NCBI GenBank assembly: GCA_000442015.1
Contig: KE560937.1
Span: 1-64,000 of the forward strand
Reading direction: 5' to 3'
Length of the DNA stretch: 64,000 bases
From: Rozella allomycis CSF55
Taxonomy: Eukaryota
Shown here piece after piece: positions 1 through 61,439 of the stretch. A program made the position numbers and the translations under genes. The notes beneath the pieces are model-generated. The model did no database searches. It saw only the letters and a program-made list of their open reading frames with translations, and was not told the DNA's origin. Every line of letters begins with the position of its first letter. Positions within the stretch are counted from its first letter, which is position 1.

Positions 1-40
1 TTACTTGAAATTTCGACTTCATAGTTGAAGTTGGCTCTTA
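1..40 (-). mobile_element. Terminal inverted repeat (1-37) plus TTA target site (38-40) of a PIF/Harbinger-like DNA element
   Basis: The reverse complement of 1-37 (GAGCCAACTTCAACTATGAAGTCGA...) matches 6931 onward (GAGCCATCTTCAACTAAAAAGTCGA...) at 22 of the first 25 nt. Both ends abut TTA. Confidence 0.7.
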
Positions 41-3000
41 TTCAACTCGCCTGCCGCTGTGATAACGCGCTTTTGGTCCTCAATCAATTGCGTCAACGTG
101 CATCAACAGTAGTCGTATCTCAACAAGCTGATGTCCCCGCACCTATGGAAATTGACGCAGTCACCCGTGCACCTGGTCCACTGACTCCGGAAGAACGCGC
201 TCACAGAATGCGCAATGGACTTTGCATTGTTTGTGGCCAAAGGGGTCACGTGCGTAACGAATGCCTGAAGTCACGCGGCCGCGGTCAATAAATTTGGAGA
301 ACTTATGGACCGTTCAAATTTCTTCTCCCCCAGAATACTTAAACAAATTAATGATTGATGGGCAGTTGCAATGGGAAAATACGAGAATTTCTGCTGCCAT
401 GTTTCTGGACAGTGGTGCGGACTCACTGTTTCTTGATGCTGAATTCGCCGCCTCACAGGGTCTCCCATTGGTTCCTTTGGCCCAGCCAGTGAGACTACAC
501 ATAGCCGATTGCACGGAATCATCATTTGGGTTAATCACCCACGAAACCATTCCGCTCCAACTCTGCATCCAAGAGAATGTTGAAACTTGCAAGTTCTTTA
601 TCACGAAGCTCCCGACGCCAATTATCTTGGGACTGCAATGGTTGAAGAAGCACAATCCTACAATCGACTGGCGATCCGAAACTCTGCGCTTCACTTCCGC
701 ATCCTGCCAAGCTGTCTGTGCTGTTGGACCTGAGCTCGTTCAGCCATCTGCGACCCCCCGACTCCGAAGGTATCACCCAAACGCCAACGGTATGTCCAAC
801 TCTGTAGCATCTCTGCCTGAACGTTTCATGCTGTTTCTAAGAAGAGCGCCAATGATGAGTTTGGTCTTGGTGGCTTTATTGGTGCTGACGCAAATGGTGA
901 AATCGTATTCCGTACAGTTGCTTCCGTTTCCAAAGAGGTGTACCCGTTTCTGTCTCCGAGAACCCCACAAACTCAAGTTGTTCCTAGTTTTATCCAAGCC
1001 GAATATAGCGTTGTCTTTTCCGCAACCAACGCTGACACACTCCCCGAGCATTGGCCATATGATTGTACAATTGAGTTAGACGCCAACGCTTAAGCTGTGT
1101 TTGACCGCGTTTACAATCTTACCGTTCCGGAAGAAGCGGCAATGAAAGAGTATTTGAAGTCACACTAGAAAAAGGGCTTTATCAGACCTAGTTCGTCTCC
1201 ATTTGGCGCGCCTTGCTTCTTTGTGAAGAAGAAAGATGGCACTTTTCGCCTCTGCGTTGATTACCGAAGACTTAATCGAATCACGAAAAAAGATCGAAAT
1301 CCACTCCCGCTCATTTCAGAACTAGTGCGAACACTGTCGCAGGGAAGAATTTTTACTGCGTTAGAACTCCGCGGGGCTTACAATTTATTACGGATTCGCA
1401 AGGGCGACGAATTTAAAACCGCATTTCTGACCAAGTTTGGTCAGTTTGAATACTTAGTAATGCCATTTGGCCTTACCAACGCACCCCCGTACTTTCAAAA
1501 GATGATGAACACGCTATTTAGTAAGTATAGCACCTTTGTGGTCTGTTATCTTGATAATATTGTGGTGTACTCTCAGAATGAAAAGGAACAATGGAAGCAC
1601 GTTCGTCAGGTTCTGGAAGTTCTCAGTGAAAATAAGTTGTATTGCAAGTTGGAGAAGTGTCAGTTTGAGTTAAAAGAGATTTCGTATTTAGGATACATTA
1701 TTTCGGCCGATGGTGTACGCATGGACCCGCTTAAAGTGCAAGCAGTTGTTGATTGGCCTGTTCCCGCCAACTGCAGATGTTTTTTGGGATTTTCAAATTT
1801 TTACCGGAGATTACTTCCGACATATGCGAAACTCACGCAACCGCTTAAGGATTTGCTCAAGAAAAATGCCGAATTTCATTTCCCAATTGATGCCTTTCAA
1901 AAGATTAAACTCGCTTTTTCTGGTGCTGGTGCCCTTGCGCACCCAAATGAATTCCAACCGTTTATCGTTGAAACCGATGCCAGTAATTTTGGAATTGGCG
2001 GTATTCTGTCTCAGTTTGATGACAATCAGGAGCTTCGGCCAGTTGCATTTTATTCCCGCCAAATGACTGCAGCGGAAAGAATCTATGAAATATATGACAA
2101 GGAGCTCCTCGGTATTAAAGCCTGCTTTGCGCATTGGCGTCACTTTCTTCAGGGTGCACGATTTCCAGTCACCGTCTACTGTGATCATAAGAGTCTTGAA
2201 TATTTTATGGAAACAAAAGAACTCACTCGACGCCAAGCGAGATGGTCCTTATTCTTTAGTGAATATGATTTCGTTGTTACTCACCGCCCCGGACTACTCA
2301 ACGGAAAACCTGATCACTTGTCACGCCGCCCGGATTACTTTGTCAAATGCGAACCCAGCAATCTTTTGCGTATCTTGGACTCGCGGCACACCAACTTAAA
2401 TTCTGTATTTTCGTCCATTGCTGCCGCTAAAATCAGTTACCAAACGGCCCATGAGCGTTTAGGACACATTGGGGATGCTGCGCTAAAAAAGCACGTTAAC
2501 CGCTGTTGATGGTCTCCACTGTTCAGAATCAAAGTCTCGCGAATTCTGTGAATCCTGTGCGCTAGGCAAATCAAAGAGATTGAACACAAAACCCTCCAGT
2601 GGCCGAGAATATGAAGTCTTAGAGGTCGTCGAGTCGGATACACAAGGCCCGTTTCCTATAACTGCTCTGCTGTAGATGGTACACGGAATAATGTAAAATT
2701 TATTGATTCTCGAACTGGTTATGTGAAATTTGAAACTATCGCAGATCGCACTGCCGCAACAATCCTGGCCGCTTTTAAGCGTTTTCAGACTCGCATGGAG
2801 CGCCGTACAGGGGGGAAAAACTCAAGCATTTACGGACCGATCAAGGTGTAAAATATATGGGAGTTTTTACTGATTACCTACGACATCTTGGCATTGTGAA
2901 ACAAATGGGAGTAGCTTACAACCATTCCCACCCAGGTAAGGGCGAAAGGATTCACCAAACAATTCTGCATCTAGCGCGCGCCATGTTGATAGACTCAAAA

Positions 3001-3699
3001 CGTCCTGCCAAATATTACTCAGAGGCTCAGAAGACCGCAGCTTACTTACATAACCGTATAGTACATGGAAAAGAAGATAAAACACCTTTCGAGTTAATTT
3101 ATTCACGCAAACCAAATCTCTCTCACTTACGACCTTTTGGCTGTGTCTGCTACGCCCATATCCCAGACGTGCATCGATCGAAATTGGACAACTCTGCTGT
3201 AAAATGTCTTTTAATTAGTTACCTGGACGATGATGATACAGAAGAGCTCAAGGGATACAAACTGATTCGGAAAGACAACGAAGCGGTGATGTTCAGGAAA
3301 TGTCCGCTTTGATGAAAATGCTCCTCGTACCCCTTTGCCAAACGCCCCGAAAAATAATGTAGACCCTTTACCTCTCTCAGAAGATAATGAGGATTATATT
3401 CCTCACTGCAGTCCAGAACATTCCCCCTCAATGGCCTCAGAAGACCCTCCTTCTCCAATCAGTGGCTCGCTCTCCAGGTCCAACATTATCGGCGATCACA
3501 ACTCCCGAACAACCCGACTCAAGAGTAAAGCTAGTATAGTCAAGTCTTCCTTTCCGGAATTTCAGAATCCAAGCCTTTAAGAAGATTTTTCCCGCGCCAG
3601 GGTCTTCACGTTTTAATAAACTCTTATTAAAACAACTCTCTTCTGGTTCTGTTAAAAGTAAAAAGCCATCTGCACAGGTTGCGCTTTTGGCACTGATAT
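41..3699 (+). mobile_element. Degenerate LTR-type retrotransposon: gag C-terminus, protease, Ty3/Gypsy RT-RNaseH, then a Copia-type integrase
   Basis: Zinc knuckle CIVCGQRGHVRNEC; protease FLDSGA; RT GFIRPSSSPFGAP, LCVDYRRLN, MPFGLTNAP, YLDN; RNaseH VETDASNFGIG, YDKELL, DHKSL. Integrase HERLGH, CESC, ESDTQGP, RTDQG, GERIH, HLRPFGC. Several frameshifts and stops. Confidence 0.92.
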
Positions 3700-3700
3700 N

Positions 3701-4397
3701 CGCCTAACGTTGGATATTCGGACATGAATAACAAATAAGCCGTACTTGGCAATCACGTGCACTGGATTGATAATATTGACTTAACTTGTAACAGCGTTTT
3801 ACTCGCCTTTAGGTTTTCGGAGATAGGAGTTAAGATATATTGAAAAAGGCTCTCATACATCAGACGCTTTATTGGAAACAAGTACTGATATATTATCTAT
3901 CGGAAATTAATATAAACAAAAAATTAGTTGGTATTACTTTAGACAATGCGTCAAACAATGTAAGGCTCATGAATCTCATTCGAAATGACAATACATTGGT
4001 TAAATATTCCAGTAATTTAATTGTGAATATATTTCAGCACTTTCCCCATTTATTGGGGACCTGAATGTTTCGCACATCCCATGCTTAGCTCATATTTTGA
4101 ACCTTATTGTAAAGGAAGGGTTACGTGTCACTGATCCGATTTTGCACAAGGTGGTTTTAATATTTAATTTTTATATTTAGTTGCGGCAAGTCATTATAAA
4201 GATAAGAAGGGGTAGCCAAAAAATTCGAAAAATTTAAGACGCACAAAAGGCTTTACAAATATCAACCGAGACTATAGTTTCGATGAATNAAATATTCCAG
4301 TAATTTAATTGTGAATATATTTCAGCACTTTCCCCATTTATTGGGGACCTGAATGTTTCGCACATCCCATGCTTAGCTCATATTTTGAACCTTATTG
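3701..4397 (+). repeat. Duplicated hAT transposase fragments bounded by gaps
   Basis: 3701-4288 is near-identical to about 4506-5093, and 4290-4397 repeats part of it again. The pieces are delimited by n at 3700, 4289 and 4398. Confidence 0.85.
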
Positions 4398-4398
4398 N

Positions 4399-5946
4399 CA
4401 TCTATATGTTCTTCCATGTCGCTAAACATTTCACATGAAGTTACCAAGGGTCTTTCCGAAACTTCCGATTTATTGAAAGATGTTTTATGTAATGTGCAAG
4501 GGTTACGCCTAACGTTGGATATTCGGACATGAATAACAAATAAGCCGTACTTGGCAATCACGTGCACTGGATTGATAATATTGACTTAACTTGTAACAGC
4601 GTTTTACTCGCCTTTAGGTTTTCGGAGATAGGAGTTAAGATATATTGAAAAAGGCTCTCATACATCAGACGCTTTATTGGAAACAAGTACTGATATATTA
4701 TCTATCGGAAATTAATATAAACAAAAAATTAGTTGGTATTACTTTAGACAATGCGTCAAACAATGTAAGGCTCATGAATCTCATTCGAAATGACAATACA
4801 TTGGTTAAATATTCCAGTAATTTAATTGTGAATATATTTCAGCACTTTCCCCATTTATTGGGGACCTGAATGTTTCGCACATCCCATGCTTAGCTCATAT
4901 TTTGAACCTTATTGTAAAGGAAGGGTTACGTGTCACTGATCCGATTTTGCACAAGGTGGTTTTAATATTTAATTTTTATATTTAGTTGCGGCAAGTCATT
5001 ATAAAGATAAGAAGGGGTAGCCAAAAAATTCGAAAAATTTAAGACGCACAAAAGGCTTTACAAATATCAACCGAGACTATAGTTTCGATGAATAATTTTA
5101 TTCACGACGTAGACACGCGTTGGAATTCTACATATTTAATGATTTAGTCAGCCGTGAAACAACAATAGGCAATTAGAGTTTATGTAATGATGCTTATGAA
5201 CTTGAAGAGAAGGAAAAAATCAAATCACATATTTTTTCGGATGAAGAGTGGCAATATTTCGATCATTTAAAAAAAATTCTGTTGGCACCCTTTTACAAAG
5301 TCACCAGAGACATGTCAGGAAAAAATACGTTACTTTAAACATGTACTCATTTTTTATGGGACACNTTATATAACCGTATAGTTCATGGAAAAGGAGATAA
5401 AACACCTTTAGAATTAATTATTCACGCAAACCAAATCTTTCTCACTGTGTCTGCTACGCCCATATCCCAGACGTGCATCGATCGAAATTGGACANTACGT
5501 TACTTTAAACATGTACTCATTTTTTATGGGACACAGTGACACCTTGGATTTGGCAAAAAAATATAAAGTTGCCGATTGTATCAAATTTTGGATGAGCTGA
5601 TTGTTGGAATAGAAACTAAATTTAGTGAATATGCAAAAAAATTGAATCCAATACGCTTATAAGAATAGCTAGTGTTCTTGATCCTCGCTTTAAACTTATT
5701 TGTTTAACAAGTGACGAAAAAATTAATATCACTGACATTATATTGAAATTAATGAAGAAGTTGAATGTAAAGCCACAAACAATCACAAAGGATAACGACG
5801 AAGAAAAAAACTCAAAAAAAAGCAATCGACCGCAAAATATGGATTATGGACTAGCATCAAAATTACGTGCCCTTCAAGCAAAGGCCCTCGAAGATAAAAC
5901 CAGACTTAACCGAAATGATGAGCTCCATGCAGATTTTGAGCGCTAT
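4399..5946 (+). mobile_element. hAT-superfamily transposase, degenerate, with short introns
   Basis: Motifs LTLD...YLAIT.HWID, GITLDNASNN, HIPCLAHILNLIVK, DVDTRWNSTYLM and ASVLDPRFK, with stops and frameshifts. Confidence 0.85.
5366..5494 (+). repeat. Second, diverged copy of the integrase fragment
   Basis: Matches about 3046-3191 with substitutions and a deletion of about 15 nt. Bounded by n at 5365 and 5495. Confidence 0.85.
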
Positions 5947-6254
5947 NACCATTAATTCGAAAAAATTAATTTTAAAAAAATATAAGTCATTTTAGAAATT
6001 TTGATTCAAACTTAGGTAAGCCGAACTTACATAAAAACGTATTAAGGACATGTTTCTCAAATTATGCAAAAAGCCTTTATAAAGTAAAATATAATCTTAC
6101 TAAAACTCTTTGTGCTAGTGCAGAGAATCAAGATCGTTTTCATAATTATCGTAATAATACAGTCACTGATAATCANCTTAATAAACTCTTATTAAATCAA
6201 CTCTCTTCTGGTTCCACGTCTGGTCTTACTCAATTTAAAACGTCAAACCACATC

Positions 6255-6930
6255 ATGTCTGAAATCTCTTCCATCGAACTCTCGCTTTCAGAACTCCAAC
6301 GTCTTATCTCTGAACATCAAGCACTCGCAAAAGAAAATCAAGATCTCAAAACCGCTGCACAGCAACTCTCCGAAACCGCAATGCGTTCTAGCTCTCGCTA
6401 TGAAGAAATATCGGCACAAAATGAACAACTCCATGGCTTACTTAACGAGAAACCTGGGAGCGTCAAAGTCAAGCTTTCGTCCTCTTTTGATGGTGAACCG
6501 TCCAACCTACGCGGTTTTCTGAACCAATTACTCATGGTTTCTAAGCTCCGTCCGTTGGAGTACTCAAGTGACGAAATACGCATCTTCACCTTAGGCACAC
6601 TTCTGACTGGTAAAGCACTGCAATGGTTTAATCCCTTTCTGGAAAAGCCTCACTTGTACAACCACGAGCTCCAAAGCTGGCAAAACTTTTCCGAAGCCTT
6701 CGTCACACAGTTTCGAGACCCGAATTTCGCCAAAAAGGCGGAAATAAAGCTCAATGCCTTAGTACAAGACACAATGTCGGTGGCGACGTACACCAGTGAG
6801 TTTAGGTGCCTTGCAGCTGACGTAGAATGGTACGAAGCTGCGCTTATGGCAAAGTTTTCCCTTGGCCGGTCCTTTGAAATCCGCAAGTTGCTCATTGGTT
6901 TTCCCAAATCCGCGACTTTAGCATCTCTTA
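6255..6930 (+). mobile_element. Ty3/Gypsy-type gag, N-terminal part, interrupted at TTA 6928-6930
   Basis: N-terminal coiled coil, FDGEPSNLRGFLNQL, LLTGKALQWF, W..F...F...F.DP. Joins in frame to position 41. Confidence 0.88.
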
Positions 6931-7031
6931 GAGCCATCTTCAACTAAAAAGTCGACTAAAAAAGTAGGTAATTTCGTAAAAAAACCCTTGCTTAAGAGTA
7001 AATTTCCTACTTTTTTGAAAAGTAGCAACCC
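6931..7031 (+). mobile_element. Other end of the PIF/Harbinger-like insertion
   Basis: Starts GAGCCATCTTCAACTA immediately after TTA; inverted match to 1-37; cut by the gap at 7032. Confidence 0.7.
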
Positions 7032-7703: not shown

Positions 7704-9205
7704 ATGTTAACAAATATCGTGGATTCCAGAAAAGAATGCAACGACATTTGTAAAATAATCGAATATTTTTCAAGTCTGGATGATAATCATAAGCAAAATT
7801 TCCTTTCATACCTAATCCCCAAACTTTCTATTCCCCAACTCCAACTAATAGTTTCAGAAGCATCCTCAAGATTGAAAATCGATTTTATATCTTCTCTTCC
7901 CGCGGAAATCATAATAAATTTATTACAAAGGCTTGATATCAGGTCGTTACTTAACATAAGCCAAGGAAGTCAATTATGGTACAGAACTGTTTTTGGAAAC
8001 TCGTATATATGGAGGCATTTAATCGAGAAAGACTGGAATATTAAAGCAGATAATGTCATGGATATTAATCAATGTATAAATCTGTATAGAACAAAATATA
8101 TTGTGCAAAAGAACTGGCAGAGCGGTAACGCGGTTGCTTACATGTTTGACTGTGTAACGCCTGCAGTTGTTACATGCTTGCAAATGGACGAAGAAAAAGT
8201 CGTGGCGTGCTTTGATGACAAGACAGTTCTTATGTGGGATCTCTATGGCAATTTGAAACAGTCATTTGTTGGTCATGTAGGTAAAATTAAAATGATTATT
8301 TAATAGGTGGTGTTTGGTGCATGCAATATATCGGAAATGTTCTCTCAACTGGTTCTACAGATAGAACGATTAGAATTTGGGACCTTCAAACAGGCGAATG
8401 TTCTAAGTGGCTTGTTGGTCACTCTTCTACAGTCAGGTGTCTGCAAATGTCTGAAGATGCTAGGCTTGTTGTTTCAGGTTCTAGAGATACTACTGTAAGA
8501 ATATGGGTAATCTCATTTAAATTTTGAATAATAGGACATAGAGACTGGTGAATGCTTGCATGTGCTCATGGGTCATCAAGCGTCTGTCAGATGCTTAGCA
8601 ATCAAAGATAACTATATAGTTTCTGGATCATATGGTACTTCTTTAGATTTTTTGTTATAGATAACTCGTGTAGGGTGTGGGACATTTGTTCAGGGGAATT
8701 GAAATTCCATCTTGAAGGACATGTTAGCAAAGTGTATTCACTTTGTGTTGACAATCGCTATATATATTCTGGTTCTCTAGACAGCACCATTAATGTATGG
8801 AGTCTAGCAGATGGAACTCAGATAAAGGCCATAAGAGACCACAGAAGCCTAGTGGCGCTATTGAAAAAGAATGAATATAATCAACTCATTAGCGCCAGCG
8901 CTGATGGTAGCGTTAAGGTGTGGGATGAAGATTTAAATCAATTGTATTCTCTAGATCATAACACATCCGCTATAACTTGCCTTTTCTCCAAGGGCCCTTG
9001 GTTAATCACTGGATCAGATAAATCAGTCAAGGTAAAAACATTCAGATTGGAATATCCTTAGCTTTGGAAAAATGGAACCTTTTGTAGAAACATTATGGAT
9101 AATGTAGATTCTGTTTGGCAAGTGGCCGCTACAGAAACATGTTTAATCAATGCAGTTCATATCAATGGGCATTCTTGCTTCCGTATTTATCATTTCGACA
9201 AATGA
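7704..9205 (+). CDS. CDC4: F-box/WD40 protein, Cdc4/Fbw7-like
   Basis: F-box DFISSLPAEIIINLLQRLD; multiple GH...SGS.D..V..WD repeats; 4 short GT-AG introns. Confidence 0.8.
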
Positions 9206-20988: not shown

Positions 20989-21114
20989 AAAAATAAACTA
21001 TTACTACTGCAAATATTATATTTTCCTTCAGTTCGATGAATGGGCTCCTCCCTNTCAATTCGAAAAGAAATATAATGAAATTCAATTACTAATTTGTAAA
21101 CAATTAATTCTTCC

Positions 21115-23168: not shown

Positions 23169-24244
<1,076 letters not shown>

Positions 24245-25102: not shown

Positions 25103-28100
25103 TTATTTGTTTTGCTTTAATAATTCCAATCTTTGTTTAAGATCTGCCAAAGTATCTTCAGCCATTTTTGTGGAACTCGAGGGTTCAGGAATTTGACTGG
25201 TCTGTACGTTTAAACTTGAATCTTTTTCAGTGTCACTTGTTTGAATGTTATAAACTTGCTTGATTTGTTCTAATTTCTTGTGGTAATCTTGAGCTGGATT
25301 GGCGACTAGAAAAAGTTAAAATGAATGATTACCGAAATTGATTGATGCTGAAGGAGCAGCAAAGGCAGGTGGAGGTTCTCTTCTTTCTAGAGCAATGTTG
25401 CATAGACCTCTTTTAATGTACCCTTGAAAGAATGAACCTGTTTTAGAGAGATGAGATTCGATTTTAGGAGTGAGTTGAGGATATTGTTTTTGAAAGTCGT
25501 ATAATTCTTCCATACCTTGTTTAGTTAATTCTTTGGAACCAATATTTTTAAAAATGACATACAATTTCGCTTGAGCTTCTTTTTCAGAAATTTCGTTATT
25601 TGGTTTTGGAATTTCTGAATTTTGAGATTGAGAAATTTCAGGAATTGGATCTGTGCGATCTGAGCGAATTTCATTCTTTTTTATAGAGTCTAGCATTAGT
25701 GATATGTAATTGAAAGCAAATGATTGTTCATAGTTATCTAATGATTGAATATCTACGAGGATGGAATCTTTGAGAGACAAGACTAGTTCATGAAGCATAG
25801 TTTTGACAGTTTTGAGGGGAGTGTCTGAGAGTGCCAATTTGTTTAAAGATCTCTTTTTCCATTCATTTGGCGGGATGTTAGTTAAGAATTGGTTGATCAA
25901 GTAAATTAAATGTTTTGAATCCAGATTGCAATCCTTGACGTCGTCTTTGATTAATCTTGTGACTTTCCAAGCGCATTTCATGACGTATTGGCAGTATTTT
26001 GCAGTTGATGAATCTTGTTCGGTGATTTTGTCTTGATGGATGAGATTTGAAGTTCTTTCTAATTCACTCAAAATAACAGAATAAAGATCATTTCTATTTG
26101 CATTGTCTAGAATTCTAACTATTAAAGCATTTAAAGCTCTATTTAGTTGATCACCCGATTCCATGGAAAGAATTTTGTCATCTAAGATTCTATCCAACAA
26201 TTCTTTGAATAATAAAAGTAAATTTTCTTTTGACACGTGTAAAGTAAAAGTTTTAGAGGTAAAGATTTGAACAAGGGCGTTTAGTATATGTTTCCTTAGT
26301 CTAGCCCCTTCCAATAGATCAGAGCTAGGTTCTAGAACAAATGCAATGTGTAGTTTGAGAGTTAAAGATTGTAAAAGTTGATTTAAATTTGAAATGATTA
26401 AATTTGGATTTGAATTTAATAAGCTTGTGAATTCTTTTAAAGCATCGATAGACTGAAGTGGAATTTCGCTTGTTATTTGAGTTGAAATTAAATCAACGAT
26501 ATAAGCTACAATTACAGGGGTCAGAATATTTTACTTGGCGAATTTCTTGATTGAATTAGAGGGGTGGCAGTAGCAAAAGTATTCATTTGAACTTTTTCAA
26601 CGAGCATTGAAGGATCAATTTTAAATGTTTTAGAAATTTGTGGCAAAGATAAAGAATCCAAACCAAGAGAGAATGGTTTCAATTTTTCAGTAATGTTTTC
26701 ACTAGAAGTATTTTCAGTTGAATTTTCTTTAATAGATTCCTTTGGAACACTTTCACTTTTATTTTCAACCTTTTCAACTTTTAATTCAGTGGAACTTTTA
26801 GAAAGACTTTCTTTGTTTATAGATCTTCTTTTTATTCTTTCATCTAACAAGAATAGAAATTTATCTTCCAATTTGAATAGAGATCTAATTGAAGGATCTA
26901 GTGAGTGAGCAATTGAAATTGTATTCAAAGCAGCGTTTCTAACACACGTGTCTCTGTCAGCAATGAAAGAAGTAATAAAGGGGATAGATTTAGGCAGAGA
27001 GGAAATAGATAAACCATATTTATCAAATAGATTTCCAATTTCTTCTAAACATTCAGATCTAGTTCTTGCATTTTTAGATTTGCAACCATCAAGTATAAAT
27101 AGGAATAGTTTACTACCAGGATATACTTTGGCTAAAGAGTGAATAATATTCTTTATTCTAGATTTAACAATTTCTTTTGAATCGCCAGTTTTCATTACAA
27201 GAAAGGGAATTAAACAATTTGCTTCATAATCATTTAAATGATAATTAATTTCATCCAACTTTTTCATTAAATATTCAATGTAATCTAAAACTTTAACTGT
27301 AATTGTTGTATTTGTATCATACAGTCTAATCGAAATATATTTAAATATCAAATCCAAAACTTTTATTTTTAAATCAAAATTATCAAACTTTTCTAATAAA
27401 TTTATTGCTTCTAAATGATCTTTAAAATTTTCACTAAACAACAAATTATGAAAATTATTTGAAAATTCAGAAATGCATTGTTCTTTAAAGAATTCAAATA
27501 AATCTCTTCTATCTGGCTCATAATTCCACTTGTATATCCCTTTATCTTTTTCCATTCTTGATTCTTTATTCCCCAAACTTGTTATTATCACTTCTTCATT
27601 CTTATTCACTAGAGTTTTCCTTGGTGAATTTAGTTTTAAACTTGATGAACTGTTTAATTTTGAACTTGAATTCATTGGTGATAAACTAGACATTTTGGAA
27701 ATTTCACTATTTGGTCTTTCTTTCTTTTGCTTGACTTCTTCTTTTTCAACTTTATCTTCACATTCTTTTTCCTTGTTTAATGTTAAAAGAAATGGAGCTA
27801 TTTGATTCAATAAAGATGGTTTGAGATCCATTGTCTTTTCTTTAATTAAATCTTGGCTTGGTTGAATCAATTCTAAAATAGATTGTGATTGTTTTCTAAT
27901 ATCTCCAGACTTGTCAAACAAACATTGAATTAAACTAGTCACCAGAAATGAATAATCTACATTCTTTTTAAATATAGATATTTTCTCTTTAAGCCACTTC
28001 AACAGATCTTTTCTTAAATTGGGATTATCTGTCATTAAAACGGTGCCAATTGGAATTATTAACACTTCCAAGCCACATGAACTAAAAATAGAATCCATAG

Positions 28101-31020
28101 ATTTTAACACTGAAGATCTAACTTGTATTTTATTATCAGTTAAACAATTCAACAAAACTATAGCTGTTTGTTTATGAAATATTTTATCAAATGATTTTAC
28201 AGATTCAGCAATCATCCCAATAATCTCACATGTTTGAACAACAATGTTCTTGTTATTATCACTCAATCTCATCTTCAATTCATTCATTAAATCTCCCAAA
28301 TTCCCTTTAATGCATTTATTAGCTCCTTCTATTATAGACATCACTACATCCAATCCCTCCTTTCTAGTCTTCCAGTTTGAATCATGCAAATCATTCATCA
28401 CTTTATTATTCAATTGATTCGATATATCAACACGCTCAATTACAGAATCAATCCCATCCTCATTACTCGTACCATCTTGCTTCCGCGTTGGCTCACTTGG
28501 AATCTTCCCCTTGACTTTATTAAACTCTGCTTCAACCAAACTCAATTGAGCCCCCGGTAGATCTTTCACAGCAACTTCAATCTGCTTCCCAAAATAAACC
28601 CTCAATGTTCCAAATGTTGATGCTCCTGCATTTCTAATTGCTACATTGGAATTCAATACAATTTGTTTCAAAAATTCAATCAAGTTTTTAACTTTAATTC
28701 CTTTCACTCCAAACTCTTCAATCGCACTTTGAATCCACAAAACTATTTCTGAAATTACTTTGGGGCTTTTTATCTTTAAAATAAATTCATAATTAAAACT
28801 CAAAACAAAATTCAAAGATATCTTTTCTGTCAAACTCTTTAATGCATCAGATGCAGCTTTTTTCTGCTTAACATCACCCAATTTCTCTATCAAATTATTC
28901 AAAACAATACTAGCCCCATTCTTATCAACACTCCAATTCTCTACCATCCATTGAATCAAATTTATTAACTTTCCAACAACTTGGAAATTAGAATCTTTAA
29001 ACCCTGGCTTATTACTAAGGAATTTCAAAAATGCTTCAGATTCAATCGTCTTGTCCAATGATTTAACTTTCTCTGTTATATCTTCGATTGCTTCCAATCT
29101 CTCCTTCCAATTTGAACTGCATAAATTATCACAAACATTCTTTGAAATATACTGAAAAACATACTCTTCCGCTTGATCATTTGAATATTTGTACATTATT
29201 GGTTCTAATTCAACCTTTGATGATGTTTTTGATGATAATGATGCTTTAGAAGAAGCTTTGGTTACACTGGGCCCTTTATTAACACTCGCCTTTGAACTTG
29301 TTCTTGATAGCACTGGTTTATTAGCCACTTCTTTCTTAACTACGGGTGGACTGTTTTCTTTCTCTTTAACATCGTTCTTTTTACTTTCTCTCTCCTTCAC
29401 TGCTTTCAATGGTTTCACTTGTGCTTTTTCTGCATAATCTTTAATCTTGGCTTGCTTCGTTGCATCTATTTTATCAAAATACAACAACAACACTCTCTCG
29501 CCAACTAATTTCATAAGCGTTCCAAATGCTTCAAATCCAGCTTCTCTAACCTCACTAACACCATCATCAATTAACTAGAATATTCAATTACATTTCTTAC
29601 CTTTAAAAACATTTCACACATCATTTTAATTTCTTCCTTTTTAGGTGCCACTTTCACCCTGGCCATTGATCTATTTAGCCACAACATACTCTCAGATCTA
29701 ACATTTGGATTCTTATGCGACGTAGCATTCTTCACATCTTCTAAAATATCACTCAATGTCACCGTTGAAGCAATTGCATCCAAAGCACTCCTAAACGATT
29801 CAACGGCTATACTCTTCTTTTCTTTTAATCTCTCAATCAAAGGCCCAACTACAATCGACTTGTAAACACTAAAGGACTTTCTAAGCGATTTGGCTATCTG
29901 GCAAATGCTATTAGATGCTGAAATCGCCAACATTAAATTAGTGTCTGCCATTCTCTTTCCCAACAATCCCATCAACTCTCCATAAGAATCTTCAGCTATC
30001 TTAGGCACTTGAAGAATTTGACTCAGTTCATCTAGAGCTTCTTTTCTAAGCTTCCAATTGCTATTCCCCTGTATGATATTCTAATATCCATCTTACAATA
30101 TTGCCCCAAAAATCTTTCGACAGTTTTGTCAATATAGGTAGAGCTTCTAAAGCCTCCAGCGCCATTTCTGCCTGTGCTTCCTCAGCTTTCAACCTTTCCT
30201 CTTCTTCATCCACCGCATCTGTCGCCTCAACAGGACTCTCTGATCTTAAATATCTCGTTTTTTCCGCCTTTTCATCTTTCACTTTTTCAAACTCGTCGGT
30301 AAGAGCCTTCAATTGAATCGCACTCATGTACGAAAAATGTACAAGTAAACCTTCTTTCATCCATTTATACAACTCCACACCAAGTCTAGTCATTTCTACC
30401 TTGGTCGCTTTATCATTCTTTTCAAAGCCTTTATTGATGCCTTTCAACAGCAACTTTAGATTCAAAGATCCAACTCCAAAAAATCTAATCAAAACCAAAA
30501 TCATGAATTACTTTATCAAATCAGCAAGTGAAGCTGCACAATTAGCGTTTACCTTGGGATTTTTATGTTCCAATCCTTTCAACAGCTCTTCTACCACATA
30601 ATCAGAATTATCAGTCTTTTCAACAAAGAGCAATATCAATTCAATCGCTTTACTTTTCATACTTGATCGATTAGCTGGCATGCCTTTTTCAATCAAAATA
30701 GGCACAAATAAACTTTTTATCCTCCTCAACATCATGCATTTTTCTTACTTTTCAGCCATATCGCCACATTGGAGAAACGCTTCAAGAGTAGCAAATCCAC
30801 CTTCCAAAGCGGCAACATTCGCTTCTTTTGAAATAAGCTTTATATAATCAAGAGATTTTTGAAAAACTGGATCGTTATCCGAGGGACTCAGTCGAAACGA
30901 CTTTTCCAAGTCCTTGTATGCAGAAAGTCGATATTTCCAGTTTTTATGACTTATACGCACATTTATCGGCTCTTGCAAATAACTAGTATCCTCAGGTTCA
31001 GTCTGCTGTTCGGAGAGCAT
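25103..31020 (-). CDS. CKAP5: XMAP215/ch-TOG/Stu2 microtubule polymerase (long multi-TOG form)
   Basis: Repeated TOG motifs HKNWKYR, SNWKLRKEAL, SSNWKERLEAI, DSNWKTRKEGL and SKNARTRSECLEE; C-terminal LADLKQRLELLK. Confidence 0.93.
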
Positions 31021-44095: not shown

Positions 44096-46721
44096 ATGCT
44101 CAAAACACTCAGCTTGATCTTTTTGGCTTCATGGATATCTTTGGTCGTGAATATTAATAGATATGGAGAAAATACCGTTTTCGATAGAAAAGTTGGAGTG
44201 TTTACAAGGAAGCAAAATGAATTTTCAATCGGGGCATTAATTCCTGTAACTATTCTAGAATCTAGGAAGAACAGATACCCAAATCAAGTAGGATTTTATA
44301 GAGCAGAAAGTTTTCGATGCAGCATAGAGAAATTTAATTCCTTGCGGGCCATTAGAGGCGCGACAGTTTACTACAACATTCAAGACACAGGAAACAGCAA
44401 TCTTAATACATTCTATTCTACAATGTCCTTCACTACAGGTGGTGATGGGGAATCTCAGGTGGTGATTGGACTTGATACATCCGACGCAGCTGATTTCATA
44501 GGTCGCTATTTCAACGATCTCAAATTCCCTGTAATAGCTTATGGAGCAACTTCTCTCGCTTTAAATGATACCAAAGTGTTTTCGACAATATCTAGAGTTG
44601 TTCCAAGTCGAAAATACACCATTGATGCCATGTTGAAGACCGCCGTAGCGTTGAAATGGAGGGTACTTTCGGGTATATTTCCAAATGATGTCCATGGACT
44701 TTCAAGTATGAACTATTTTTTGAAAAAGGCCCGCGAGCTAAATATATTGACTCTTTGCACGACAACTATGCTGGACTTTGATGATAGTAGCACAGATTTG
44801 ACAGATTTTATAAATTGCGTTCAAAGAAAAGGTGTCAAGGGAATAGCCACCTTTAGTAAACTACTGACTTGCATCATATAGTGTCTCAGTTCATAACTCT
44901 CTCCATTATGAATAAAACGAAAGAAAATACTTTTTACAAAGATGTAGTTTATTTTACGACAGAAGATTTTCAGATATTTTCTCCCTGGGTTGTTAATTCG
45001 TCTGGGCTGACTAAAATATCTTATCTCGAGGGGATCTTCTGTTTTACACCAAAATTAGGTGATGTTGACGATATTCATGAATGTGTGCTCAAAAGAAAGC
45101 CGAAATTTATCTTGGATAGCAAAGAAATTATCTTCAATAGCTACTGGGATAATCAATTTCGTTGCAAGTCAAAACCTTTACCGGGCACTGATAATGTTAC
45201 ATCGTGGGAATCGTTACCACTCTGCGACGATGACTACGAGAGAAGAAGTATTAATGGATCGTGCAGGTGTACTGGAAAAGAGCATTTAATATGGCCAAAA
45301 GACTTTCTTATGGGATACATTCACGATGCGGCACTAGTCGCAGTGAAGGCGATTGATAAAATAATAAACAATTGCGAATCACTTAAAAATGAAACTTTTT
45401 GTAAGAAAATCGAGTACAGCGCTGAAGACGTTGGTTGGGTAGTTAAACAAATAACTGTCCAAGGGGCGACAGGAGAGATATCATTTAACGGTATTGATAG
45501 AATTAGTAACCTTAGTATGGAAAATACAAATAGAAAATGATATTGACATAAATCAGTATTTGAAGAATGGAAGTACAATACTCGCTGGAAATTATTCTAA
45601 CGAGGTGCTCTACTTACCCATCGCAAAGAAATTGATTTGGAAAAACGGAATTGTACAGGTTTCCTCGGTAAAACCCGTTTTCCTTAAAACTTGGGATACT
45701 ATGGTTGTAATTCTTAATGTATTAGCTGGTGTTGGAATAGCGGCGTCTATTTTTCTTATTCTCTATTTTTGGAACCAAAGGGAGCATGCTGTAATTAAAA
45801 GAAGTAGCCCTATTTTTTGCACGTTTATACTAATTGGATGTCTTCTCATTTATTTATCAATGATTGTTTGGAGTTTGCGTCCGTCCAAAGCGGTGTGTAT
45901 TTTGCAAGTTTGGATACCTGTGATAGGCTATGGCACTATAATGAGGTATGCATTTTTCCTATTTAATAAAAGTAATCTGTTGGCTAAAACTTATAGGATT
46001 TGGAAAATATTCAATAACGTCCAGTTATTGTTAAATGCAATTCGAGATAAGGATCTGTTTATCATAACATTTGTATTTCAAGTTTTGGAAGTTGTTTTCT
46101 TATTAGCATGGATGCTATCGAGTGGGTTGCCTTCAGATACAATGGTTGTTAGTGAAAAAACGGATGAAATGCTTTTAGTATGCTCTTCTATCGATACCAC
46201 TTATCGAAAAGCATTCGCCGCCGTGCTTTTGTTGATAAATTCTTTGATGGCGATATTGGGGAGTATAATGGCCTATCTAACCAGAAAGGTGGATTCTGCA
46301 TTCAATGAATCCAAGTTTATATCTTTTTCAGTAATGAATTCAATCAATTCTAAGCCAGATGTACAACATGGTTCTAGTTCTTATAATGGTCACACCTGTG
46401 TATCTTCTATCCGGCGAGGATTTAGATGCTATGAAGCAAAAATATGTTGTTCTTTCATTAGGATTTTGGTTTATGAATACTTTTACTATGATATCTTTGT
46501 TTGTTCCAAAGTTATTAGAGATCATTAAACGTGAAAAATTGCAAAACATGGATACTGGAAATCCTATGGCTAGTTTGAAATCACCATTACATCCCAAAGT
46601 TGGCTATGCAAATTTCCCGAGTGAAGGAGGTCTAAGAAGCCGAAAAACTACCAAGGTACCATTCTCAAAGTCTAGTGCTCCTCAAATAGTAATTGGGGAT
46701 TCCAGTGAAGAAGACGAATAA
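44096..46721 (+). CDS. Class C GPCR (Venus-flytrap ectodomain plus 7tm_3)
   Basis: Signal peptide; PVIAYGATS..LND...F.TISRVVPS; GATGEISF; VIKRSSPIF, LLAKTYRI..IF, AFNESKFI, LFVPK. Confidence 0.9.
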
Positions 46722-58294: not shown

Positions 58295-58397
58295 TGTATT
58301 CAAATACAATTTTCACATTACATAAATAAATCGTAATTTCCAAGTCGTGTTTTGTTTTTGTTATCAAATTCTACCAAAACAAAACAAAATCGCAAAT

Positions 58398-61300
58398 ATG
58401 AATTCAAAGATGAATGAAATCATCTACTTTATTGACAATAGGGGATCAAAATTGGAATTGGATAGAATACAGCGAGTATCAAGGCATTCGTCACAAAGGA
58501 TCTCTAGACATGATAGCTATAAACAGTTGAGGCGTAGAAGCATAAGTTTAGACTCTTACGAAAGAAAGCTTTTATATGATAAAGACAAGCAAAGAATTGA
58601 AGAAATCCGGAACTCAGCTTTGGCGGTAACTAACCCAGGTCCTGCAAGTCTTTGTCATGAACCTCAGCCGAATGCAGATCTGATAAATATGTTAGCTTTG
58701 AATAGTGCGAACAAATACAAACGAAAAAAGAGTTTTTCCCATGGTAGGTCACACAGAAGAAGCCAAAGCGCCTTAACTGGAACCAACAATCCACCTCCCA
58801 CCATATCAAATTATAGTATATTTAAGCCAATCGTGGTTGAAGAAGAAAGCTTAATAGAGCCAATACCCGAAAACCTTGAAAAATCTCATTTAACTCATAG
58901 TTCTACTTTCTCCACTATTGAAATCGTTGACACCGACAAAGAAGATTGTAAAAATTTTAGGAAACTTTCTAAAGTGCATGATACAGATGAATACAAGCAC
59001 AATAATGATTACGAAGGGACAAGTTTGTTGCCGCTCAGATTATTTTCATTGCGTAATGTCATCGCCATATCTAACATAATTATTAATTTTATTGCAATTT
59101 TTGTAATATCTCTGGTTGCATACTTTGCCTCTTTTGAGTCTACTAATTCTGCTGTGTCAATAATGGCACAATTAACAGTAAGAGATATAAAATTGAAGCT
59201 TGAAAATTCTTTGGCGAGTGCAGAACAATATAATATATTCACAGAAGACAACTTTAAGCTTAATTCTATCCCAATGAATGAGACTGATTCAGCATTGCGA
59301 CACTTGCTTTTTACTTTTTCACAGCATAAAGTTTCTGACATTGATCAAATTTACATAGTTTCTCCAGATAATTTATATAACGGAGTAGGTAGAATTAAAT
59401 CAAGAACAACAATTTCTCCGAATTTGGTAATCAAATTTATTAATTCCACGGACAAACCATTTCGCGAGCAATATATCATTAATGAACCATGCGGTGAAGA
59501 AAATTACTATTGCTCCAAAAGGACTCCCAGAACTTTTTTAAGCAATTCATCCTATATTGTTAATTCAAGGCCATACTTCAAAAAAGCAGTTCTTTCGAAA
59601 AAGCCAGGGTGGACGGATATATACTCCTTTGCATCTTTTGGAGTTCTGGGTTTTACTTCTGTTCGTCCAATATACGAAGACTTGGAGAAAAATCGTTTGC
59701 AATTCGTTGCTGCTGTAGACATCACACTATCATCCTTGTCACTATTTTTGCAAAACGTGACTAGATCAATATCTGAAAATCGTCCAAACAATGAGGGTTT
59801 ACTATTATGGATTATTGAACGCAAAACCGGATTTTTAGTTGCTACATCTGAACCCGGGTCAATAAAGTTGTACAATCGTCAGTTATCTGAGACTTCCGAT
59901 GTGATAAGGATCAGGGCTACAGATTCGGAAAATCAAGTTTTGAAGAGTGCGATGGAAAGTGTCTCACTGAATATGAAACAAGAATTTAAGGAACAAGACT
60001 CTATGAATGTGTATAGAAACGGTAGAAATTTAATAGTGGCAAGCAAATATTCTTCATTTTCTGATGATATTGATTGGGTTATAATAATGAATATTCCTAT
60101 CGAAATATTTCAGTACCAACTTAATCGAACTTATTTGACAAATATTCCTTTAGTGACCTCGATTGTGTTTCTTGCTTCCATCATGATGTCTGTTATTGTA
60201 ACAAGGTACATAGGGAAGCCCTTAAAAGCTATTACAGAACAAATGCTTCAAGTAGCGAATCTAGACTTTAATCTTGACTCCGATTCGCCCGAACCAGACG
60301 AAGAAAATCAAATAGATGAAATGCTCAAAATAACCATTGACGGTGTCACCAAGAATTATTCATTTAATGAATTAGAAGAAAAGGGGAAAAAGAAGGAAAA
60401 CTCGCAGGCCAAAGAAAAGCAAAAGAAGTCGCTAAAATTAAAAGAAGTTCGATACCTAGAATCGGCTATGTCGTCAATGACAAGCGCACTGAGGAGCTTT
60501 TCTAGATACGTTCCTGTTGACGTTGTCACTCTCTTGGTTCAGCTCAAACGGGAGGCTGTGCTAGGTGTTGATAACAATGACCTCACAGTAAGAATAATCA
60601 TTAACTTGAATAGATTATGTTTACCGATATCGCCAATTTCACGAGTATTACCGAAAAGATCTCTCCAAACCAATTGGTAGTTTTAATGGGGTAATCAATT
60701 GTATGCAACATCAGTTTAGCGAATACTTTTCTGAAATATCGGGCATAATCTTGGAAAGTCAAGGAATAGTAGACAAATATATCGGTGATGCAGTCATGGC
60801 ATTTTGGAACGCTCCCTTGTCTCTAGAAAACCATCCGGTAATCGCTTGCCACGCTGCCCTTCAATGTCAAAAACGCCTCCATGAACTTCAAAAACGTAAT
60901 TTAGTGTATTAATCAGAATTATAGGCTGGTTGAAACAGGGATTTCCCTTGATCGAAACGAGAATCGGGATAAATACTGGAAACGCTTTGGTGGGTAATTT
61001 TGGGGCACCTAATAGACTGAATTACACATGCATAGGCGATTCAGTAAACTTGGCCTCCAGATTGGAAGGATTAAATAAGCTATACGGAACAAAAATAATT
61101 ATCAGTGAGTTTACCTATGAAAGAGTTAGACCTTATTTTGTGTGCAGACCGCTTGATCGAGTAGCAGTCAAGGGTAAAACAAAAGCTGTCCTCGTGTATG
61201 AATTAATCGACTTTGTAGATAATATTTCAAGCTTCTCTGTAAAGCAATTAGGGATTTACAACTACGGGTTTAAACTATACCAAGATGGAAAATATGATTT

Positions 61301-61439
61301 GGCAAAAGAAGCTTTTGAAAAGTATTTAAAGTCATCAATTGAAGATACGGTTACTAAGCGCCATATTGAAAATTGCCAAAAAATGACCCAATCAATGTCA
61401 CAACCATGGGATAGAATTGTAGTTCTCGATACAAAGTAG
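58398..61439 (+). CDS. Membrane class III adenylate cyclase with a Cache-like sensor domain
   Basis: TM, then RPYF...WTDIY...VAAVDITLSSLS, then TM and a HAMP-like region. Catalytic FTDIANFT, DKYIGDAVM, RLNYTCIGDSVNLASRLE. Confidence 0.92.

Follow-up and report, generated by a model that had tools for sequence, protein, structure and literature searches.

A Gypsy-order retrotransposon with a Copia-type integrase in Rozella allomycis

The first 64,000 nucleotides of contig KE560937.1 from Rozella allomycis CSF55 (assembly GCA_000442015.1), referred to here as the window, begin with the remains of a compact long terminal repeat (LTR) retrotransposon that joins modules of two superfamilies, Ty3/Gypsy and Ty1/Copia. 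The window copy (35-3649) is dead, degenerate and truncated at its 5′ end, and the interest lies in the lineage behind it. On the forward strand it reads, in order, a Ty3-type gag with a CCHC knuckle, a Gypsy-type protease (PR), an RVT_1 reverse transcriptase (RT), a Gypsy RNase H (RH), an integrase (IN) and a short LTR. Judged by its sequence, the integrase is Copia-type throughout, in its zinc finger, DDE core, SH3-like domain and tail. The copy and its relatives very probably represent a lineage of Gypsy order (Gypsy gag, protease, RT and RNase H) that acquired a Copia-type integrase by recombination. A first-pass annotation of the window had already proposed that a Gypsy-order element swapped in a Copia integrase, and separate trees, Pfam matches, a bridged junction and intact relatives now support it. 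The host is an early-diverging, fungus-related parasite, and the mobile elements of its group are little studied.

Domain order and type of the integrase

The copy opens in the C-terminal part of gag with its CCHC zinc knuckle (35..291, frame 1), which gives weak zf-CCHC matches in Pfam (on 25-291) and is 31.7% identical to the gag end of L001, a metagenome contig encoding the intact relative P0008. An aspartyl protease of Gypsy/retroviral type follows in frame 3 (258..1079; gag-asp_proteas E 3e-05, RVP_2 E 0.0076), where residues 5-128 of P0010 align to 384-755 at 52%. The step from gag to protease (frame 1 to frame 3) is the same in the intact L001, so that, on the reading frames, the offset is probably a normal -1 arrangement rather than damage. 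Gypsy-type RT (RVT_1, ~1223-1702), RNase H (~1889-2266) and the linker behind RNase H occupy 866..2380 in frame 2, as assigned from Pfam, alignment with P0008 and the RT tree.

The stop-to-stop open reading frame (ORF) 1169-2509 comprises 446 amino acids (aa) and matches RVT_1 at aa 19-178 (E 4e-30), RT_RNaseH at aa 263-366 (E 2e-34) and RT_RNaseH_2 (E 4e-30). It reads unbroken from RT/RNase H into '...HRPG...DHLSRRPDY...ISYQTAHERLGHIGDAALKKH', i.e. '...DHLSRRPDYFVKCEPSNLLRILDSRHTNLNSVFSSIAAAKISYQTAHERLGHIGDAALKKH', which together with the Pfam matches bears out the continuity from Gypsy RNase H into the start of the integrase that the first-pass annotation had noticed (there with the ORF given as 1223-2509). 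The junction itself is a variable linker (2380..2440), defined by sequence comparison and bridging contigs, between the Gypsy-derived 'RRPDY..E.SN..IL' and the Copia-derived 'H.RLGH' zinc finger.

Pfam, identity to Copia polyproteins and trees identify the integrase (2420..3294), which lies in four frame pieces: 2420-2494, 2496-2666, 2672-2815 and 2818-3294. The second piece, in frame 3, reads FCESCALGKSKR...ESDTQGPF and holds the CxxC and the first catalytic D; the third, in frame 2, reads VDGTRNN...MERRTGG; the fourth, in frame 1, reads KLKHLRTDQG...GERIHQT...HLRPFGCVCYAHIP...KLDNSAVKC and holds the second D, the E 35 residues later and the SH3-like domain. The pol C-terminal tail (3299..3580, frame 2) ends '...NIIGDHNSRTTR...' with a stop at 3578-3580, its last 40 bases lying inside the LTR, and the tails of P0008, P0009, P0013 and others close with the same kind of motif. 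All the strings earlier quoted for the remainder of the integrase across frameshifts were located in the shifted frames of 2496-3294 and in the tail. The SH3_retrovirus Pfam match and the colinear alignment with P0008 (866-3370, 53-59% identity in tblastn) place them beyond chance.

The HHCC residues of the zinc finger stand at 2450/2465/2547/2556 and the catalytic residues at D 2637, D 2839 and E 2944, followed by the SH3-like domain. Both HHCC and D,D35E are invariant in all 31 rows of the integrase clade described below, the window included. The window integrase is 56-58% identical to the Copia polyproteins P0122, P0123 and P0129; the first two have the domain order Pol_BBD, gag_pre-integrs, SH3_retrovirus, RVT_2. 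In Pfam it matches SH3_retrovirus (E 6e-17 on 2779-3312), and the first frameshift divides a weak gag_pre-integrs match into two parts (profile 9-45 and 48-67). The picture is similar in five proteins of the same chimeric architecture, that is, Gypsy RT and RNase H followed by a Copia-type integrase. All five match SH3_retrovirus at 41-68 bits, four reach 25-27 bits for gag_pre-integrs, just below the cut-off, and Integrase_H2C2 and RVT_2 are found in none of the five; the window integrase is also without an Integrase_H2C2 match.

HHCC, DDE and an SH3-like C-terminal domain are common to all LTR-element integrases, and the gag_pre-integrs and rve scores lie under the Pfam cut-offs, as would be expected if this were a Gypsy integrase that has diverged and is Copia-like in a handful of short motifs only. 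Such an origin is, however, extremely improbable. Over ~160-330 residues the integrase shares 46-58% identity with integrases that precede RVT_2 in polyproteins of Copia order; the SH3_retrovirus score clears its cut-off by a wide margin, and Integrase_H2C2 is missing. With the P0008 integrase as phmmer query, other chimeric and Copia integrases score 39-394 bits and Gypsy proteins at most 13.6 bits (157 proteins); the Gypsy integrases also split off in the tree described below.

No Copia RT occurs anywhere in the 64 kb, where tblastn of three Copia polyproteins matches only integrase parts, as the first-pass reading of the sequence behind the integrase had indicated; nor was a Copia gag or protease found in the window. 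The Copia RT is absent downstream because the LTR follows the integrase tail, and not because sequence is missing.

The junction in other copies and the descent of the two modules

Logan contigs were compared with window 1-3699 at a likeness of at least 85%. Nine public runs contain part of 1900-3000, and four runs (X1, X2, X3 and X6, from three studies and with two organism labels) were used for the junction. Contigs of X1 and X3 each cover 1967-2627 with 0 differences, a contig of X2 covers 1570-3050 with 11 differences and 2 gaps, and a contig of X6 covers 1682-3603 with 70 differences and 35 gap letters. The junction at 2330-2480 is thus bridged in four of four runs, partly by diverged copies, and X1 and X3 each contain several variant contigs side by side. 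X1, which may be the window's own source sample, is not independent.

The same architecture was found in proteins from other sources. A search of longer proteins with 1169-2509 as query gave 4304 matches from 7999 scored, and of the 120 listed, 11 combine RVT_1, RNase H and SH3_retrovirus without Integrase_H2C2 and match the query over 95-100% of its length, including the junction; P0051 was recognised as a twelfth on a Pfam scan. These twelve are 49-62% identical to the RT-to-junction ORF of the window. Most of the ordinary Gypsy matches, which come from Batrachochytrium, Amoeboaphelidium and metagenomes, have a coverage of 85-96% together with Integrase_H2C2 and rve. A second search with the P0008 integrase gave 45 matches, of which 11 are chimeric (three of them new), 29 carry RVT_2, five have no RT and none has Integrase_H2C2. 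The RVT_2 proteins nearest to the P0008 integrase have 46-55% identity to it, which is as close as the chimeric proteins come to one another (51-59%). Altogether, this order of domains across the junction is common to 15 or more metagenome polyproteins. The first-pass annotation had asked for further copies spanning the junction and had named a junction that is single-copy or without read support as the observation that would speak against it; instead, the joint recurs in these proteins and in contigs of all four runs.

The most complete relative is L001, of 4689 bases, with a gag of 323 aa that ends in a CCHC knuckle (115-1086) and an overlapping, uninterrupted pol of 1200 aa (999-4601). In Pfam its gag matches Retrotrans_gag and Ty3_capsid, and the protease of the chimeric proteins is of the RVP_2/gag-asp type. 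The metagenome contigs of the members measure 2.4-7.7 kb, mostly 4.2-4.7 kb. Between protease and RT, L001 also contains six tandem 33-base units (1581-1844) that encode a proline-rich stretch (LPSLPIPDSP...) in the open pol frame, and a similar repeat, rich in serine and proline, occupies that place in P0016.

Scanning metagenome DNA with a window integrase piece gave 83 matching stretches and nine confirmed loci: L001 is chimeric, five have a downstream Copia RT (L002, L004, L005, L006 and L008) and three are too short to tell (L003, L007 and L009). In a census of 1.84 billion protein representatives with window 2818-3294, 57 matches reached E ≤1e-30. Five proteins of 1582-2618 aa with a Gypsy RT, a Copia-type integrase and a Copia RT (P0169, P0174, P0237, P0260 and P0287) were considered as intermediates and dropped: they all belong to the annotation of a single pseudoscorpion genome and probably arose where gene models fused nested elements. 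In the Protein Atlas, residues 360-835 of P0008 found no large cluster with the chimeric architecture, and scores there did not exceed 0.81 (leads only).

The position of the joint was compared in 13 chimeric proteins (two of the 15 missed the pattern used), three Gypsy and 14 Copia relatives. The chimeric proteins and their nearest Gypsy relatives have 'LSRRPDY..E..NF..LL.P' in common after RNase H. The Gypsy relatives then read 'DWPL.IADYL...' and ~70 further residues ahead of their own finger; the chimeric proteins have 10-25 variable residues and then '..H.RLGHIG..L.KTL.AV.G', common to the Copia relatives. At the right end, the SH3-like domain, 'DDDD.EE.KGYK' and 'LFGDP.Y' are common to chimeric and Copia proteins. 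Past 'LFGDP.Y' the Copia proteins continue into RVT_2, and the chimeric ones stop within ~100-180 residues of 'LRPFG'.

A one-off juxtaposition could in principle mimic such a joint, if a Copia fragment had been inserted or recombined beside a Gypsy fragment, or the two had been misassembled, and the frame stayed open by chance. The region is repeat debris in which single Ns (3700, 4289, 4398, 5365, 5495, 5947, 6176 and 7032) coincide with repeat boundaries, and the five pseudoscorpion proteins show that fused Gypsy-plus-Copia gene models exist. This explanation is nevertheless very improbable, given that the bridging contigs come from three studies and include the copies with 11 and 70 differences. 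The joint moreover recurs in at least 15 proteins whose identity to one another or to the window is only 45-62%, and the RT and integrase trees have sub-clades that agree; the pol of L001 is uninterrupted, the LTR directly follows the integrase, and the window holds no Copia gag, protease or RT.

The first-pass annotation had called for separate RT/RNase H and integrase phylogenies, with an integrase that groups with Gypsy as the result that would speak against its reading. Built from the homologues found here, the trees place RT/RNase H inside Gypsy and the integrase with Copia, the latter in line with the phmmer scores. The integrase tree has 61 rows, 16 of them chimeric (one is the window, read through with X), 31 Copia-order or RT-less and 14 Gypsy; the partial integrases P0139, P0151 and P0153 were left out of the trees. 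One clade of 31 rows, made up of the 16 chimeric and 15 Copia-order integrases, has a support of 100/100 (LG+G4; the same in a quick mixture tree), and the 14 Gypsy integrases split off at 100/99. For the RT/RNase H tree (65 rows), the chimeric P0121, P0124 and P0138 were omitted (incomplete RT) and every second Gypsy row was thinned out. Thirteen chimeric rows fall inside a 39-row Gypsy clade (support 99), in three groups; the other 26 rows are Gypsy elements, including those of Batrachochytrium and Amoeboaphelidium, many with Integrase_H2C2 and rve. The sub-clades {P0064,P0092}, {P0018,P0031,P0042} and {P0013,P0016} are found in both trees.

Within the 31-row clade, the chimeric rows are intermingled with the Copia rows, and support is low. 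This pattern could also arise without a single founding swap, from repeated integrase transfer between co-resident Copia elements and the Gypsy group, the members then being chimeras of separate origin. None of 200 bootstrap trees unites the chimeric rows in one clade (these trees need 4-6 changes), P0064 and P0092 are separated from the remaining 29 rows (84/89), and the free RT tree has three groups of chimeric rows. A single swap is therefore not established by the trees, though it is not rejected by approximately unbiased (AU) tests. Trees constrained to keep the chimeric rows in one group had a higher log-likelihood than the free quick trees, by 11.2 for the RT (p-AU 0.66) and by 8.4 for the integrase (p-AU 0.65). 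The inner branches are short and mostly without support, and the breakpoint lies at the same place in 13 of the 15 chimeric proteins (those compared). Repeated swaps without a single founding event are unlikely. The evidence leans slightly towards an undescribed, long-lived lineage from superfamily recombination, with a Metaviridae-type particle and replicase and a Pseudoviridae-type integrase, which occurs in Rozella and in other uncultured microbial eukaryotes and whose integrase modules may still pass to and from the sister Copia lineage.

Under recombination between the superfamilies, a Gypsy ancestor akin to chytrid and aphelid elements would have lost its own integrase, with its N-terminal extension, H2C2 finger, rve core and, in some relatives, chromodomain. 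An integrase module from a co-resident Copia lineage would have replaced it, with the left breakpoint in the linker, 10-25 residues ahead of the first zinc-finger histidine, and the right breakpoint ahead of the Copia RT. The route may have been recombination or template switching, after which the product would have diversified as a unit. By analogy with related elements, working copies would be transcribed from the LTR and translated into gag and, via a -1 frame change, gag-pol; a Ty3-type capsid would assemble, the RNA would be reverse-transcribed, and the Copia-type integrase would insert the DNA, possibly with a changed choice of target.

Several observations weigh against this reading. 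The support for the junction comes from assembled contigs and not from reads, and contigs give no measure of copy number or of the absence of variants. The 15 chimeric proteins are all of metagenome origin, none being from a named, annotated genome. The best 150 representatives of the census comprise three chimeric proteins, 64 of Copia order, 78 fragments and five with both RT types, and the rve core scores 18-23 bits, under its Pfam cut-off, in three of the five chimeric proteins scanned. The scatter of the chimeric integrases over the bootstrap trees belongs here as well, as do features of the element's ends: none of the copies seen had two LTRs and target-site duplications, L001 is without a terminal direct repeat, the LTR is unusually short (~112 bases) with mapped ends that differ from the usual TG...CA, no primer-binding site was assigned, and there is no obvious match to a tRNA 3′ end.

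Ends of the element and the surrounding contig

The right end was mapped from several lines of evidence. Contigs in X1 and X6 carry unrelated letters upstream of 3538; past 3649, contigs of X1 and X3 continue with thirty letters identical to window 6215-6244, the leader ahead of a gag ORF; one X6 contig links 3554-3649 via 714 letters to 35-382; and 3613-3649 matches 6178-6214 (37 bases). From these, ~3538-3649 is the 3′ LTR, of ~112 bases with ends uncertain by a few bases, which overlaps the end of pol and is followed by unrelated sequence and the N at 3700. By the same evidence, 6177-6947 (forward strand) is a 5′ end of the same family, with an LTR end at 6177-6214, the leader at 6215-6254 and, from 6255 to 6944 (stop 6945-6947), 230 aa from the N terminus of a Ty3-type gag (Retrotrans_gag E 3e-13, Ty3_capsid E 2e-09), 33.5% identical to the L001 gag. 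A full element would then measure ~112 + 714 + 3615 bases, or 4.4 kb. One LTR is mapped in the window, with a purine-rich run directly upstream of it, and no copy with both LTRs was seen; the two ends of the L001 contig do not overlap. Three 5′-context variants have CA ahead of '..TCTGGTCTTACTCAA', and the window 3′ LTR has TG at the same spot. Tf1-like self-priming and a tRNA 3′-end primer site were considered by eye, with no convincing match. The predicted fold of 6177-6260 is unremarkable (z -2.15), and the 64-kb window contains no tRNA genes.

The window copy is cut at its 5′ end near base 35, because contigs of other copies match only from 35 and diverge earlier. Bases 1-34 are a different repeat that abuts the truncated end, and contigs of X1 and X2 depart from the window sequence at 38-40. 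In X1 and X3 the summed contig depth, a word depth that is not taken as copy number, is several-fold higher at 1-124 and 3473-3699 than over the remaining element. Contigs of the same two runs skip ~281-283 bases within 3339-3623, so that in some copies of the family the greater part of the integrase tail is missing, along with the beginning of the LTR.

Further damage in the window copy includes in-frame stops at 1091-1093 and 1166-1168 in the RT region, a frame change between protease and RT (~755-870) and, by alignment with P0008, frame changes in the integrase at ~2495, 2668, 2816 and 3297. Other copies in the same runs have indels at 2662 (5 bases), 2812/2814 (2 bases) and 3299 (2 bases), exactly where the window integrase frame breaks, and the breaks are thus private to the window copy or to a subset of copies.

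Downstream of the element, an isolated 129-base fragment of another integrase copy (5366..5494, forward strand) has 85% identity to 3046-3190 and tblastn matches. Ns stand on both sides of it and at the start of the gag-leader fragment. A further single N lies at 21054, and most of the single Ns fall exactly on repeat-fragment boundaries; the interval from 3.7 to 7.0 kb therefore looks like small contigs strung together, in which the order of pieces may not be real. It also contains an AT-rich direct duplication (3753-4180 / 4558-4985, spacing 805 bases) with three ORF translations identical letter for letter. No Pfam family was found in the ORFs tested from the repeats between 3834 and 5946.

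Beyond the repeats, the window encodes an F-box protein (7704-8303), PRMT1 (23169-23909, reverse strand), a TOG-domain XMAP215-like protein (26521-29574, reverse strand), a class C seven-transmembrane (7TM) receptor (45455-46528), and a guanylate/adenylate cyclase domain (60900-61439); ahead of the cyclase domain lies an ORF of 784 aa with no Pfam family (58326-60680). The PRMT1 fragment is 100% identical over 95% of its length to a Rozella allomycis CSF55 protein (next match 66%), and in the Protein Atlas it falls into broad eukaryote clusters only. G+C amounts to 33-36% in the flanks vs 43-46% in the element, which, together with the flanking genes, fits a host locus with an inserted repeat.

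Position among known retrotransposons

LTR retrotransposons and the corresponding virus families are classed by RT phylogeny plus domain order, and the integrase is assumed to travel along. If the recombinant lineage is real, whole catalytic modules can cross the superfamily line and still yield a lasting, diversifying element, and RT-based classification and integrase-based target choice have been uncoupled in nature. Since the integrase and its tail decide the insertion sites of such elements, the lineage would be a natural experiment on the integrase's own contribution, and it would also test how far an integrase tolerates foreign LTR ends and capsids. An annotation pipeline will misread loci of this kind if it labels them 'nested Gypsy plus Copia' or 'Gypsy'.

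The full-text literature searched contained no account of a Gypsy RT/RNase H joined to a Copia integrase, nor did the portions seen of PMC3248453, PMC5718144 and PMC2774666, a scope outside which lie repeat databases (Repbase, Dfam, GyDB and REXdb), subscription journals and supplements. The earlier suggestion of a possibly undescribed lineage therefore stands as far as that literature and no farther.

The element fits neither superfamily in full. It has the RVT_1 RT grouping with Gypsy, the Gypsy RNase H, the order gag-PR-RT-RH-IN and the Ty3-type capsid/gag of Ty3/Gypsy (Metaviridae), but not the Gypsy-type integrase with Integrase_H2C2, rve core and Gypsy C-terminal module. With Ty1/Copia (Pseudoviridae) it has the Copia-type integrase in common, gag_pre-integrs being only just below cut-off, but neither the RVT_2 RT nor the order gag-PR-IN-RT-RH; here the integrase comes last, followed by the LTR.

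The closest known elements on the Gypsy side are the chytrid and aphelid Ty3/Gypsy elements of the Tf1/Tf2-like group, which resemble it in their Retrotrans_gag/Ty3_capsid gag, protease, RVT_1, RNase H and PR-RT-RH-IN order. Their RT/RNase H are 55-63% identical, the present family is nested among them, and the linker after RNase H is the same. By contrast, their integrase, which has an N-terminal extension ('DWPL.IADYL...'), Integrase_H2C2, an rve core that passes its cut-off and, in many cases, a chromodomain, is here replaced by a Copia-type one. On the Copia side, the metagenome polyproteins P0122, P0123 and P0129-P0137 have integrases 46-58% identical, in one 100/100 clade, with the motifs 'DDDD.EE.KGYK' and 'LFGDP.Y' in common. 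They differ in having a Copia gag and protease (Retrotran_gag_2, Pol_BBD), the integrase before the RT, and RVT_2, none of which is present in the window.

Bridges between the superfamilies have been recognized before. Gmr1 keeps Gypsy-type domains. Gmr1/REM1-like Gypsy elements are described as a 'shortcut' between Ty3/Gypsy and Ty1/Copia, Gmr1 belonging to a Gypsy lineage with the Copia domain order, and CoDi-A, a chromodomain-bearing Copia element, is a known superfamily bridge (both in the portion seen of PMC2774666). Gmr1-like elements have the integrase before the RT, unlike the RT-RH-IN order found here, and Gmr1 thus represents the converse case, with Gypsy domains in Copia order, whereas the present family has the Gypsy order and an integrase that is itself Copia-type. 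CoDi-A also combines modules across the superfamilies, but by the addition of a chromodomain, and not by the replacement of the catalytic integrase.

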